64,000 nt of DNA from Candidatus Enterousia sp. (GCA_045637165.1 JAZTYU010000008.1:12524-76523), one strand, 5' to 3'. Counted from the first letter of the stretch, positions 27,786 to 31,831 are shown. Numbers and translations are program-made. Notes: a model not told the origin generated them from the sequence alone.

Positions 27786-28715
27786 GTGCGGTTCGGCTTT
27801 TTTATTTTTATGATTTTTCCTTTTATGGCATCGGCAAATGTCCTGCCACTGGATGATGCGTTGCGTGCCACATACACCGCATGCGTTGGTATTGATGATG
27901 AATTGAGTGACCTGAAAACAATGGCCGGGATAAATACTGCAATTACATCTGTTGGAACGGCAGCCGGTGTTGGGGCAACGGTCACAGGGCTTGTAAAAGC
28001 CAACAAGGATAAGCAGATTGAAATAAAACTAGAAAAACTGCGCGAAATTGAACAAAAAAATCCAAACCTACAATCCACAGATGCTGAATGGGATAATTTT
28101 GAATCCGGCCTGACAACAGAACTGGCCAATGCAAAAATAGAGGTTGAAAAATACCAGGCTGAAATTGAAAAACTGAATAAACAATCCAAAAAACTGGGTA
28201 ATTGGCGTACGGGCCTGATGGCGGGCGCAACCGCAACCAATGTGGCCGGCGCAATTATTGCCGGCACGAATAAAGTAGATGGCGACCTGAAATCGCAAAT
28301 AAACAATTGTATCGGCAGTGTCAAAACCCTGCGCAATTCCATTATGCAGGCACGTATAAATGGCGAAGACGTATCCGAGGCCGAGTCTATCGCATCCGCC
28401 TGTGGCGAATATGAATATGTCGATGTGTCCAAGATAAATAATCGCGCCAAAGGTGCAATGATTTCATCTACCGTTGGTGCCACAACCGGATTGGCTGGAA
28501 CCATTACATCCGCCACCGCCAATTCAAACAAAATACGCGATGCCCAGGGTGATGCTGCACAACAGAAAGAAAAAAATCTGAATACTGCATCAAATGTGTT
28601 GGCGGGCGCAACCACTGTGGCAACGGCAACGGCAACTGTATTCAACGCTACACAGATATCCGCAATAAAAAAAGTAGCCGCAGTCGCCGAAAAATGTACG
28701 GGGGTATTGAAATGA
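27786..28715 (+). CDS. Secreted protein with four Gly/Ala/Thr-rich (glycine-zipper-like) segments separated by coiled-coil spacers
   Basis: GTG start at 27786, 4 nt after RBS AGGAGGG; the tracked upstream start lies inside the terminator hairpin. Signal peptide (V)RFGFFIFMIFPFMASA/NV. Segments GINTAITSVGTAAGVGATVTGL, LMAGATATNVAGAIIAGT, ISSTVGATTGLAGTITSAT and VLAGATTVATATATVFNAT. Confidence 0.7.
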   Translation: MRFGFFIFMIFPFMASANVLPLDDALRATYTACVGIDDELSDLKTMAGINTAITSVGTAAGVGATVTGLVKANKDKQIEIKLEKLREIEQKNPNLQSTDAEWDNFESGLTTELANAKIEVEKYQAEIEKLNKQSKKLGNWRTGLMAGATATNVAGAIIAGTNKVDGDLKSQINNCIGSVKTLRNSIMQARINGEDVSEAESIASACGEYEYVDVSKINNRAKGAMISSTVGATTGLAGTITSATANSNKIRDAQGDAAQQKEKNLNTASNVLAGATTVATATATVFNATQISAIKKVAAVAEKCTGVLK

Positions 28716-31700
28716 AGAAAACCCTGATTGCATTTTTGTGTACATTTATTGCGCTGCCTGCAATGGCTGATAACTATATCAAATTCAAGGCATCCGCAAT
28801 CGAAGATACGATAAATACAATGGTGCCGGAATCGCACCGCGCTTCCGCAGCAGACGAATACCAAAAACAGATGGATTCAACCACCGGTAAAATATCTGTT
28901 ATGGGTATTTATAAAGTTTGTGCGGCCGCCGGGTTCAATATAAATAACACAAATGGATATAACGGTTGTCGCCTGTTTATAAATACAATCGCAGAAAAAT
29001 CTGGTTTTGGCTTTGGTAGCGCAAACCAACAAAATTGCAAAACAAAATTCAATGGTATTTGGGCTTTATCCCCCGATGGAAAACAATATCAGTGCGTTGG
29101 CAAAGACGGCCATAAATTGGTATATCACGCATCATGTGACGGTGCGGGTGGCGATTGTATTCGGGATTTTTTATCCCTGCAAACCCAGGAACCAAATGCA
29201 CGCGAATTTATACAGGCATACGGACAACAAAAGAACTTACAATTTACATGTTGGTATACTTATGACAGTCGTCGTGACATAACCAGTCCTCTGGGACAAG
29301 ATTATATAAAATGCAGTGTGGGTGGCAAGGCATACGAATTTGAATTTGACGATTTGATTCAGGACCCAGGTAAAACCGCGGTTGAATCTGAAAATACGGC
29401 CCTGTGTGAAATGTTTGGTGGTAAAATTGTAAAACATCCAGACAGCAGTATTGAAAAACAATGGCAATCGTGCGAAGTATCAAGGGAAATTTGCAATGGC
29501 CCACTACATAATTTGGCAATCAAAATCGGGCACAATGTAATGTACCAGGGATACTGCCGCCTGTCACGCACAGTAAAAGAAACATCGGTCGTTGGTCTAA
29601 AAACATTGCCGGGCGTAGACAGTCGTGTGTTTTATAACACCGGTGCCCAAATGCGTGCCGGCATGGCAAAATCACAAACCGAAGAATATCTGCGCACAAA
29701 ATTCCCAAATGAAACATATATAAACTGTGACCCAAATCCAAAAATATTGAATGCAGGTTTTGGAATTGACCGGGACTATGTCATGACTTGTACTGTTGGC
29801 AGTAAACAGGTTGATTTTATATTCCATGACCTGACCGAGGGGAATGATGCGCGTGCTGCAACCGGCATGGATGCAATGCAGTGTATAATCAGTGGTGGTA
29901 CATTCAAGGGCGAATCCTGCCGTGGTCCAACCCAGGCAGAATGTAATGCCCTGGATGCTGCATTACGTGCCAAGGGCTCATCTGAGGGCGCAAAGTGGGA
30001 TGACGATGTTCGGGCATGCATCATGGGCAATGCAATGAAGACCTATAAGCGCGATGTCACAACGGGATACATTGTTGGTGCCGTGGTTATTATTGGTGGA
30101 ACAATCGCAGTCATTGGTACAGGTGGTGCAGCGGCCCCTGCAATCATTGGTGGTGCAGAAATGCTGGTAACCGACCTGGCAATAAATTGGCTGATTGATG
30201 CGAACCACAGACGTTTGAGCAAGGGGGCCGCCACCCGTTTTGTGAATTTTGTTGAAGATGCAGATAAATGCACCACCGAGGCCTGTGCCCTGAAAGTATT
30301 ACAATCACATTATGCAACGTTATCTGGCGTTATGAATGACTTGAACAAGGACGACCTGGCGGTGGTGGATACAACAATGGAACGGCTGTTCGGGCTGATA
30401 CAGACAGAATTTGTGGCGTGTGGTAAAAACGATATGGGACAAACGGTCTATGCAAATCCGGCAGACTGCGCAATGCAACAATCGCATCTAAAATTGATGG
30501 ATTATATTGACCCACTGTCTGAACCTGTTTTGATTATAGCAAGTATTGCATATAACCCAGGTTATGTAACAAACAAATTTATGAAACTCAAAAAAGTCAG
30601 CAAATTGGCAAAATTAGATGATGCGGCTGATGGTATAAATTATGATAAAAAACTACGGGCAGCATATCAACAGTATGCCCCAAAAAATCAATCTTTTGAC
30701 GATTTCAAAAAGATGTTTGCAAATGAAGCAGAATTCGACAAGGCAGTTGCAGGTTGGAAAACGTTTGAACCAGGTAGTGTAAAAATGGGGGAGTATGGCT
30801 GGTCGCCAGAGGTTTATGTGTCTTCGCCTTATTCTACATATGACCCTGAACTTGCGAAACAAATGAGAACAATCGATGAAGAATATGCAGGCGATATCGC
30901 AGCATTGGATGAACAAATAAAACCATTGAGAAAACAAGCTAGGCAGCTTGAGAAAGCTAGAGAAGATGAGCTTTATAAACAAAAACGTTTGATAGAAGAC
31001 AAGGCTAAGGAACGACTTGGACGAAGAGTTACTGATGATGATTGGAACCTAGAAGAGTTGAGCGACCTAAAACAACAATATACTGACATAGATGCTAAGT
31101 TATATGGTGCGCCAGATTATACTCCACAAGAAATAGAAGTTATGGATGAGCTTGCGCCATTAGAAAATATGCGTGAAGGCTATATTGTGGCCAGAGACCG
31201 AGAAAAAAGCAGACTTATAAATGCCTCTATTCCAAACGAAGTTGCGACTGCAGTGGCAGAAACAAGGCGTCAAGAATTGATTGATATAATCGCATCTGAT
31301 GATGTTTTATTTGCACAGGTACAAGACTTTGAGAACCTTTCTGTTGCAGATAAACAATCTTTCTTGCAAAATGTTCATTCAAAATTAGATGATGTAACAC
31401 ATAATGTAGGTTGGGCTCCCAGAGTCAGTGTTTACGACGACCCAAAATCAAGTATAGTGGCGAATGCAGCAAGACAATACAACAATAGCCCTTTAGGTAG
31501 ACAACTAAATGCAAATGAAGTTTTGAATACGATTGTTCATGAGCAAAGTCATTTAGTTGATGATGCTGCTGCCGATTTGGGGATGTTAGGTGCCCAAAAA
31601 GCAAACATAGATATACAAAAGGCAGATATGACGACTCAGTGGGAAACGTATTGGGATTGGAATACATTTGCCCCAACAGAAAAACGATACCTGCCTATAG

Positions 31701-31831
31701 AAACAGAAGAAGTGTATCGGGCTGTTCCTACAGAATACTCTTCGTATCAAGTTGGAAGTGTAAAAGAATCAGCGCCCACTCATCAAAACCTTGTTCAGCA
31801 AATCATTGAACGTCGTGCCGAGATGCAGTAA
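28712..31831 (+). CDS. 1039-aa secreted/membrane-anchored Cys-rich protein with glycine-zipper TM hairpin, coiled coil and C-terminal HExxH module
   Basis: ATG at 28712 overlaps the upstream stop (ATGA). Signal peptide MKKTLIAFLCTFIALPAMA/DN. About 30 Cys in the first ~440 aa, with an internal module duplication. GYIVGAVVIIGGTIAVIGTGGAAAPAIIGG at 30059-30198. HEQSH at 31538-52. Confidence 0.75.
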   Translation: MKKTLIAFLCTFIALPAMADNYIKFKASAIEDTINTMVPESHRASAADEYQKQMDSTTGKISVMGIYKVCAAAGFNINNTNGYNGCRLFINTIAEKSGFGFGSANQQNCKTKFNGIWALSPDGKQYQCVGKDGHKLVYHASCDGAGGDCIRDFLSLQTQEPNAREFIQAYGQQKNLQFTCWYTYDSRRDITSPLGQDYIKCSVGGKAYEFEFDDLIQDPGKTAVESENTALCEMFGGKIVKHPDSSIEKQWQSCEVSREICNGPLHNLAIKIGHNVMYQGYCRLSRTVKETSVVGLKTLPGVDSRVFYNTGAQMRAGMAKSQTEEYLRTKFPNETYINCDPNPKILNAGFGIDRDYVMTCTVGSKQVDFIFHDLTEGNDARAATGMDAMQCIISGGTFKGESCRGPTQAECNALDAALRAKGSSEGAKWDDDVRACIMGNAMKTYKRDVTTGYIVGAVVIIGGTIAVIGTGGAAAPAIIGGAEMLVTDLAINWLIDANHRRLSKGAATRFVNFVEDADKCTTEACALKVLQSHYATLSGVMNDLNKDDLAVVDTTMERLFGLIQTEFVACGKNDMGQTVYANPADCAMQQSHLKLMDYIDPLSEPVLIIASIAYNPGYVTNKFMKLKKVSKLAKLDDAADGINYDKKLRAAYQQYAPKNQSFDDFKKMFANEAEFDKAVAGWKTFEPGSVKMGEYGWSPEVYVSSPYSTYDPELAKQMRTIDEEYAGDIAALDEQIKPLRKQARQLEKAREDELYKQKRLIEDKAKERLGRRVTDDDWNLEELSDLKQQYTDIDAKLYGAPDYTPQEIEVMDELAPLENMREGYIVARDREKSRLINASIPNEVATAVAETRRQELIDIIASDDVLFAQVQDFENLSVADKQSFLQNVHSKLDDVTHNVGWAPRVSVYDDPKSSIVANAARQYNNSPLGRQLNANEVLNTIVHEQSHLVDDAAADLGMLGAQKANIDIQKADMTTQWETYWDWNTFAPTEKRYLPIETEEVYRAVPTEYSSYQVGSVKESAPTHQNLVQQIIERRAEMQ

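Follow-up and report, generated by a model that had tools for sequence, protein, structure and literature searches.

A candidate Sec-dependent polymorphic effector pair with an exchangeable C-terminal module in the gut alphaproteobacterial lineage Candidatus Enterousia

Two described systems come closest to the gene pair reported here. MafA/MafB of Neisseria, which belong to the Sec/T2SS-dependent class, combine a signal peptide, a lineage-specific constant N-domain and a polymorphic C-terminus with an invariant secreted upstream partner, and APD1/APD2 of Amoebophilus asiaticus need no immunity genes, their target being the host (Zhang et al. 2012, PMC3482391). A two-gene cassette that resembles MafA/MafB in its logic, without homology to them, was found in a stretch of 64,000 nucleotides (nt) of Candidatus Enterousia sp. 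(GCA_045637165.1 JAZTYU010000008.1:12524-76523; this whole stretch is called the window below), which derives from a Candidatus Enterousia-like gut alphaproteobacterium of the order Rs-D84. Its two genes, here named gene 1 and gene 2, are on balance probably a lineage-specific, Sec-dependent polymorphic effector/toxin pair and, as such, a self-contained unit of Rs-D84/Candidatus Enterousia. An earlier note on this DNA, made from the sequence alone, had proposed a new toxin or host-interaction module belonging to no known family, and that proposal is strengthened by a polymorphic C-terminus with a sharp junction, by an allele with a Zeta-toxin domain and by downstream genes specific to particular allele classes. 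The cassette comprises the following features.

27786-28715, plus strand: gene 1, encoding a predicted secreted, all-alpha partner of 309 amino acids (aa) with little variation
28712-31831, plus strand: gene 2, encoding a modular protein of 1039 aa; its start overlaps the stop of gene 1
28712-28768, plus strand: predicted Sec signal peptide of gene 2, residues 1-19, MKKTLIAFLCTFIALPAMA/DN (cleavage AMA/D), read from the sequence
28769-30046, plus strand: Cys-rich ectodomain of gene 2, residues 20-445, with 18 Cys nearly all conserved family-wide
30065-30202, plus strand: Gly-rich hydrophobic hairpin of gene 2, residues 452-497, with an uncharged stretch of 31-46 residues
30203-30631, plus strand: juxtamembrane module of gene 2, residues 498-640, with invariant Cys 520, 525, 570 and 586
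30621-30632, plus strand: main recombination junction, beyond which the identity of about 93% to other alleles is lost altogether
30632-31828, plus strand: exchangeable C-terminal module, residues 641-1039, with a YAPKN motif, a coiled-coil stalk and an HExxH domain
31832-31928, plus strand: 3' flank of the cassette, which locus L002 has kept along with the final 36 nt of gene 2

As in Neisseria MafA/MafB, the upstream gene of the pair encodes a non-polymorphic, predicted secreted partner of about 300 aa; the downstream gene, like that of MafB, encodes a signal peptide, a lineage-restricted constant N-domain and a polymorphic C-terminal effector; and immunity-like genes follow some alleles of gene 2. 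Unlike MafA/MafB, to which neither protein has sequence or fold similarity (there was no MafB/DUF1020 (MAFB-N) Pfam match), gene 1 has no lipobox, its predicted signal peptide ending ASA/N with no Cys, and gene 2 is twice as long as MafB, with a disulfide-rich ectodomain, a Gly-rich hairpin and a coiled-coil stalk. Many gene 2 alleles, that of the window included, also differ from MafB in having no immunity gene. With APD1/APD2 the pair shares occurrence in a host-dependent bacterium and the joining of a signal peptide and lineage-specific N-domain to diverse C-terminal enzymes (PMC3482391). Unlike those proteins, which are lipoproteins occurring as parallel paralogues, the pair is present as one or two loci per genome, and gene 2 shows serial replacement of alleles and has an obligatory partner gene.

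Two parts make up gene 2: residues 1-640, which are constant, and a C-terminal module of about 400 residues that is swapped between strains. In a BLAST comparison of 117 gene 2 relatives, 93-95% identity over residues 1-640 gave way to unrelated sequence over the remaining 215-600 residues (allele P0014, for instance, is 95% identical over residues 1-640 and unrelated beyond), and the C-terminal tails form at least 8 clusters. Further junctions occur near residues 544, 570, 720-800 and 960. In nucleotide comparisons, six relatives match the window at about 93% identity from position 27802 onwards; this identity ends at 30621-30632 in loci L041, L007, L001 and L002, at 30572 in L039 and at 29842 in L009, and the same-class relative L043 remains 93% identical right through to the stop codon. 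Traces of replaced modules were found beyond the stop codons of other alleles. Locus L002, which bears an allele of another class, has at 4941-5075, beyond its own stop, a 90% identical copy of window positions 31796-31928, representing the last 36 nt of a window-type gene 2 and its 3' flank, and L005 (13302-13346) has kept the last 11-15 codons of a window-type gene 2 beyond an other-class allele. These remnants indicate displacement of C-terminal cassettes between two conserved flanks.

Some alternative C-terminal modules are accompanied by downstream genes of their own. One class matches the Pfam family Zeta_toxin (expectation value, E = 1.2e-23), several show weak Kdo/protein-kinase-like matches, and the remaining classes matched nothing. 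As with Zeta/PezT kinases, a small cytoplasmic protein is encoded downstream of the Zeta_toxin domain; unlike Zeta/PezT, the domain is not a free toxin, being fused to the 640-residue exported constant region, and it is absent from the window allele. In three contexts the zeta alleles are followed, 17-106 nt downstream, by a gene for the same 180-aa cytoplasmic protein, for which no Pfam family match is on record, and then by a gene for an HD_4 phosphohydrolase; L045 additionally encodes a 141-aa protein paralogous to the 180-aa one. Downstream of the P0066 class come a gene for an 85-aa protein and then likewise an HD_4 gene.

L039 9611-10153: HD_4 gene (RelA/SpoT-hydrolase-like), second gene downstream
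L045 7620-8162: HD_4 gene (RelA/SpoT-hydrolase-like), second gene downstream
L048 4171-4722: HD_4 gene (RelA/SpoT-hydrolase-like), second gene downstream

Across 54 loci the 180-aa protein adjoins zeta alleles, with one distant antisense homologue in addition, and the HD_4 gene adjoins the zeta and P0066 classes only. The 180-aa and 85-aa proteins are candidate immunity proteins of the zeta and P0066 classes, respectively, and the HD_4 product may be an enzymatic antidote. Pfam and PDB profile searches did not bear out resemblances noticed by eye, of the P0066 class to RelA/SpoT and of the P0058 class to ADP-ribosyltransferases, and a 150-aa open reading frame (ORF) after the L010/L011 alleles, which is Pro/Arg-rich and not conserved elsewhere, looks spurious. 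The family displays two traits of polymorphic toxins (Zhang et al. 2012), a constant part followed by unrelated tails and traces of displacement (the remnants in L002 and L005 and the 141-aa paralogue in L045). Of the export routes used by polymorphic toxins, only the Sec class fits, with its signal peptide, lineage-specific domain and secreted upstream partner; a third trait, a cognate immunity gene directly downstream, was not found for the window allele.

The module carried by the window allele begins with the YAPKN motif and continues into a stalk of long helices forming a coiled coil (residues 712-870 in the AlphaFold2 model), where a long coiled coil had been predicted, and into an HExxH domain at residues about 871-1039 that contains two conserved sites.

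31538-31552, plus strand: HEQSH, residues 943-947 (H943, E944 and H947), invariant
31733-31735, plus strand: E1008, an invariant Glu 61 residues after H947, candidate third zinc ligand

The HExxH sequence had been noted earlier at this position, and both it and the Gly-rich segments of the pair proved to be conserved in alignments of homologues. None of H943, E944 and H947 varies among 32 same-class and 18 cross-class sequences, and in an alignment of 18 divergent copies (15-57% identity) only these three residues and E1008 are invariant, with Y1002 nearly so, a pattern that is gluzincin-like. The domain ends about 55 of 118 proteins of the gene 2 family, including that of the window. No significant Pfam match was obtained for the module, a PDB profile search with it came back empty, and the modelled HExxH region (predicted local distance difference test score, pLDDT, 80-94) had no Foldseek match with E < 0.1. 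Individual members gave sub-threshold Pfam matches to zincin families only (SprT-like, Tox-MPTase2, BSP, Aspzincin_M35 and DUF6782), the best match to a Tox family being to Tox-MPTase2 (E = 0.019, in 1 of 18 sequences, not significant). Like Tox-MPTase1-5, Tox-HopH1 and gluzincins in general, the domain is C-terminal, with a helix-borne HExxH after a beta-strand region and a conserved Glu downstream; no cognate immunity gene is listed for these families. It is unlike all of these in matching none significantly and in having a YAPKN motif and coiled-coil stalk specific to the gene 2 family. The conserved residues point to a putative metallopeptidase of a new zincin-like (HExxH...E) family, which an exhaustive profile search extended to 792 representative clusters, most of them other gene 2-like proteins, including forms of 1250-2600 aa with extra Cys-rich repeats. 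One member of the giant homologues P0239-P0376 (alignment A5) weakly matches the VRP3/SpvC phosphothreonine lyase (E = 5.5e-5), which, if real, would imply a eukaryotic target.

The databases contain 1938 relatives of gene 1 and 117 of gene 2, far more than expected by chance. All relatives belong to uncultured gut Alphaproteobacteria, mostly labelled Candidatus Enterousia; the published Enterousia metagenome-assembled genome (MAG) KS320-82 is 94% identical over the constant region of gene 2. Members of Rs-D84 have genomes of < 1 Mb, no respiration and few transporters; their predicted lifestyle is obligate symbiosis or parasitism, with metabolites drawn from other cells (PMC12306168). Of 38 species-level genome loci, 35 have a gene 1 homologue immediately 5' of the gene 2 homologue, typically overlapping it by 4 nt, so that the two co-occur as a pair across the neighbourhoods of homologues. 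In the window the overlap is the ATGA at 28712-28715 (context AAATGA), of the translational-coupling type described in the earlier note. Gene 1 is an obligatory and nearly invariant helical partner, secreted by prediction and carried on the same message as gene 2 through this overlap. When flanking ORFs were clustered across loci, no further neighbour gene was found to be conserved beside the pair; a MarR gene 3' of L023/27/37 and a c11 gene 3' of L013/28/29/32 were judged ordinary neighbours.

Two divergent pairs coexist in some genomes. L011 and L021 lie on one contig (CALXMC010000005.1), L015 and L023 belong to one MAG (RGIG2010), and the coexisting gene 2 homologues are about 55-60% versus about 25% identical to that of the window. 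The gene 2 homologue of L021 has 1830 aa, and no gene 1 homologue was found upstream of it.

The start of gene 1 at GTG 27786 is preceded by AGGAGG and agrees with the N-termini of homologues, upholding the 309-aa reading frame with a signal peptide (residues 1-17, ending ASA/N) that had been proposed for it. The protein has four invariant Cys (33, 175, 206 and 304) and, as had also been noted, four Gly/Ala/Thr-rich segments, which the homologue alignment shows to be conserved.

27921-27995, plus strand: Gly/Ala/Thr-rich helix 1 of gene 1, residues 46-70, strongly conserved
28206-28271, plus strand: Gly/Ala/Thr-rich helix 2 of gene 1, residues 141-162, strongly conserved
28452-28520, plus strand: Gly/Ala/Thr-rich helix 3 of gene 1, residues 223-245, strongly conserved
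28581-28655, plus strand: Gly/Ala/Thr-rich helix 4 of gene 1, residues 266-290, strongly conserved

Between these lie K/E/Q-rich charged helices, the coiled coils of the earlier description. With Kyte-Doolittle values of 1.0-1.4, the small-residue helices are too polar for classical transmembrane segments. They share with the gene 2 hairpin the small-xxx-small periodicity of VacA, CdzC/D bacteriocins and Gly-zipper 2TM proteins; unlike glycine-zipper families, the two proteins gave no match to the Pfam Glycine-zipper 2TM and Gly-zipper Omp families at E up to 1. The AlphaFold2 model of gene 1 is poor (pLDDT 48), and its Foldseek matches are therefore uninformative, among them non-significant ones to AhlB and ClyA (E 0.7-2.6). 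A match of gene 1 to TIGR04527 (mycoplasma MG_279/280) is weak (E = 1e-4, against a cutoff of 125 bits).

Neither protein had a significant match in Pfam, NCBIfam, PHROGs or PADLOC. In PDB sequence searches, phmmer with gene 2 and profiles built from the HExxH module and the P0058 class returned only noise, and no Foldseek match of the gene 2 model to PDB or BFVD reached E < 0.001, the best in PDB being to double-stranded RNA-binding domain (dsRBD)-like alpha-beta3-alpha modules (E 0.1-1). In PADLOC, gene 1, gene 2 and four alternative alleles had no match, and a fifth, P0099, had a weak one to MkoA only (E = 0.0042). No domains of type V, VI or VII secretion systems were found in the Pfam scan, and no description of the gene 1/gene 2 family was found in the literature. 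The statement that neither protein could be placed in a known family by eye is thus extended to sequence and fold searches.

The constant part of gene 2 follows the predicted signal peptide, which was read from the sequence as in the earlier note, and opens with an ectodomain of alpha-beta3-alpha modules bearing the motifs YEFEFDDL and VDFIFHDL. About 30 Cys had been attributed to the ectodomain; 18 were counted, out of a total of 23 in the protein, of which 4 lie at residues 520-586 and 1 in the signal peptide. The Gly-rich hydrophobic hairpin, recognized earlier and located here at 30065-30202, has family-wide two arms around a conserved TGG..P turn, and its arm 2 contains invariant D488 and D496, followed by HRRLSK. 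The juxtamembrane module ends with NPGYV and the basic helix KFMKLKKVSKLAKL. Conserved Cys are even in number in both mature chains (4 in gene 1, 22 in gene 2), which together with the signal peptides is an extracytoplasmic signature for both proteins, and export of both by Sec is predicted on these grounds. The ectodomain-side flank of the hairpin is basic (mean lysine plus arginine 2.5 across the family). This flank and the TGG..P turn suggest a helical hairpin with both sides extracytoplasmic, a topology consistent with the even Cys number and with the four conserved Cys beyond the hairpin. The AlphaFold2 model of gene 2 (pLDDT 67.5) has good quality in the ectodomain and C-terminal module; over residues 430-640 it is poor and uninformative as to topology.

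In the proposed mechanism, both proteins would be exported by Sec, and the constant part of gene 2 would, with gene 1, anchor the C-terminal effector and present it at the cell envelope, possibly also translocating it. The effector would act on another cell, either a bacterial competitor or sibling or a supporting partner cell, and strain-to-strain recombination at the fixed junction would replace it with another. The window allele would deliver a putative metallopeptidase, with no linked immunity gene, as is the case for other metallopeptidase toxins. Export of the C-terminus, its delivery to another cell, its peptidase activity, the putative toxicity of the gene 2 modules and the role given to gene 1 are predictions from sequence features. 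More tentatively, and with a probability well short of even, gene 1 and the constant part may form a new contact-dependent envelope apparatus, independent of the type III to type VII secretion systems, that inserts exchangeable enzymes into the cells on which these bacteria live, in which case the HExxH domain would define a new family of metallopeptidase effectors. The apparatus would be made up of the disulfide-rich ectodomain, the glycine-zipper hairpin and the small-residue helical partner.

Several findings weigh against an exported polymorphic effector. No outer-membrane export or delivery component was identified, and the Zeta class is the only recognized toxin domain among the gene 2 alleles. 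The window allele has no immunity candidate: as the earlier note had remarked, no small ORF is tightly linked to it, the next gene, for an AAA ATPase, lying 190 nt away with no ORF between. Elsewhere in the same class there are 809 nt to pagL in L043 and a convergent gene downstream in L006. In the table of Zhang et al. (2012, PMC3482391) none of the metallopeptidase toxin families has an immunity protein, and for that reason a missing immunity gene is not unusual. The hairpin is basic both in its N flank and in the stretch after arm 2, and a further basic helix follows a weak hydrophobic segment at residues 603-618; these flanks would also be compatible with a single span and a cytoplasmic C-terminus of gene 2. 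Finally, standalone proteins of 380-585 aa with YAPKN and HExxH...E and without a signal peptide exist in the same clade.

L052 7001-8203: standalone YAPKN + HExxH protein
L053 7001-8758: standalone YAPKN + HExxH protein
L054 7001-8143: standalone YAPKN + HExxH protein

These proteins open with YAPKN, as the window's module does, and some of them have C-terminal repeats of about 35 aa. They are encoded by single genes amid housekeeping neighbours (frr-uppS-cdsA-rseP-bamA, or recG-M48), and paralogues without signal peptides in such loci hint at an endogenous cytoplasmic role.

About 3 kb upstream of the standalone gene in L054 there is a gene for a 386-aa protein with no Pfam match, a possible paralogue by length alone.

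The alternative to which these points lend most weight, and which we consider unlikely, is that gene 2 is a type I transmembrane sensor-effector with its swappable enzyme in the producer's own cytoplasm. The ectodomain and gene 1 would sense an envelope event (phage adsorption, cell contact or damage), the C-terminal output would be regulated suicide, defence or signalling, and the small downstream genes would be antitoxins. Besides HRRLSK after arm 2, the basic helix after residues 603-618, the signal-peptide-free HExxH paralogues and the HExxH alleles without an immunity gene, such a view can draw on Zeta kinases requiring ATP and cytoplasmic substrates, on effector swapping on a constant sensor being typical of defence systems, and on the window cassette sharing an island with the candidate defence ATPase PDC-S01. 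It is opposed by the lack of PADLOC matches for gene 1, gene 2 and four alternative alleles, and by the clade-wide distribution of the pair, usually in ordinary chromosomal contexts and not in defence islands. The flank on the ectodomain side is the more basic, contrary to a single span with N outside and C inside, the TGG..P turn suggests a hairpin, and the four conserved Cys after it fit an oxidizing compartment. Polymorphic toxins are, moreover, typified by displaced 3' remnants and by an orphan immunity-like paralogue, both of which occur here. The membrane topology of gene 2 is the main point that separates the exported effector from a sensor-effector.

A structural role for the pair, as an envelope or adhesion complex in which the gene 2 ectodomain binds the partner cell, is less probable still. 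The C-terminal variation would then be host-range or antigenic variation, and the HExxH domain a self-processing or matrix-degrading protease and not a delivered toxin. Such a role would suit the rapid divergence of the ectodomain, since gene 1 is still 55-65% identical where the ectodomain and constant region of gene 2 are down to 22-26%, and the lifestyle of Rs-D84, which depends on other cells (PMC12306168). It would also suit the arrangement on the IMG/VR contig L050 (8001-12482), where a gene 1 homologue (59% identical) is followed by a secreted, Cys-containing protein of 450 aa that has in common with gene 2 only the ...EFIFDD module, with no hairpin and no enzyme domain, and then by two paralogous membrane proteins (258 and 277 aa). 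Members of the gene 1 family therefore pair with other partners also; the gene 1 match on L051 (IMG/VR) equals that on L050. An adhesion complex leaves unexplained the Zeta-toxin kinase, the kinase-like modules and the class-specific cytoplasmic proteins encoded downstream, and the sharp junction and displaced remnants indicate exchange of effectors, not gradual antigenic drift.

Rs-D84/Candidatus Enterousia is a widespread, uncultured group that appears to depend on other cells. The 4-kb cassette, kept in nearly every one of these reduced genomes, strongly suggests itself as a candidate molecular interface for this lifestyle, combining a fast-evolving ectodomain, a near-invariant partner and a swappable enzyme. 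As a polymorphic effector pair it would enlarge the known repertoire of polymorphic toxins by a constant "delivery" domain and a partner family, both new, and by six or more effector domains that fit no existing class.

In the window the pair is cargo (about 27579-31928) of an integrative island of 10,155 bp (25709-35863), which is bounded by a direct repeat corresponding to the 5' part of tRNA-Val(GAC), not to the usual 3' end, and which also encodes an AlpA-like helix-turn-helix (HTH) protein, at the right end with the integrase, and another HTH protein.

25662-25708: left 47-nt perfect direct repeat, inside tRNA-Val
35817-35863: right 47-nt perfect direct repeat, partial tRNA-Val
34093-35436, plus strand: tyrosine integrase of the island (PF00589, E = 7.5e-28)
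32023-33336, plus strand: AAA_14/DUF4143 ATPase, island cargo, matching the PADLOC candidate defence system PDC-S01 (E = 6.5e-161)
27579-27706, plus strand: leader segment travelling with the cassette, 81% identical to L043 6403-6533
27743-27764, plus strand: terminator-like hairpin and T-run from a consensus scan, 21 nt before the start of gene 1

Residence on this integrase-bearing 10.1-kb island might suggest that the pair consists of mobile-element transfer or virion components (a conjugative pilus or type IV secretion system, or phage structural proteins), an identity that is effectively refuted: neither protein matched such families in Pfam, PHROG or BFVD or resides in clusters of them, a gene 1 relative is present on just 2 of 2.9 million viral contigs, the island carries no other transfer genes, and the cassette copies of close relatives, 93% identical, sit in the chromosome between aspS and pagL/gyrB, with no mobile genes. 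Mobility is thus a trait of the window copy and not of the family.

The earlier description of the pair as lying behind an attenuator leader on a mobile element holds for the mobile element; what was called an attenuator is the terminator-like hairpin at 27743-27764. The leader segment forms a hairpin (CCTCCAAC..GTTGGAGG) with the motif CTCCA-N6-20-TGGAG at 27663-27685, and has no Rfam match. The closest relative has a related leader sequence about 540-670 nt 5' of gene 1. In 33 other loci the motif was not found in the 260 nt preceding gene 1, and the idea that a conserved leader or attenuator belongs to the module was dropped.

A 51-nt hairpin element at 27659-27709 has a 76%-identical copy at 35991-36041, just outside the right end of the island (0 chance matches in shuffles), and this copy overlaps a weak Rfam match to sRNA-Xcc1 (E = 0.39). 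Two tandem 33-nt repeats (82% identical) at 31924-31989 overlap a promoter-like site just upstream of the ATPase gene and may be an operator. The island also has, at 26276-27244 on the plus strand, an ORF of 322 aa with no Pfam, PHROG or PADLOC match, which contains a sequence, YHCHILLNV, that is HUH-like by eye and may encode a replication or relaxase protein.

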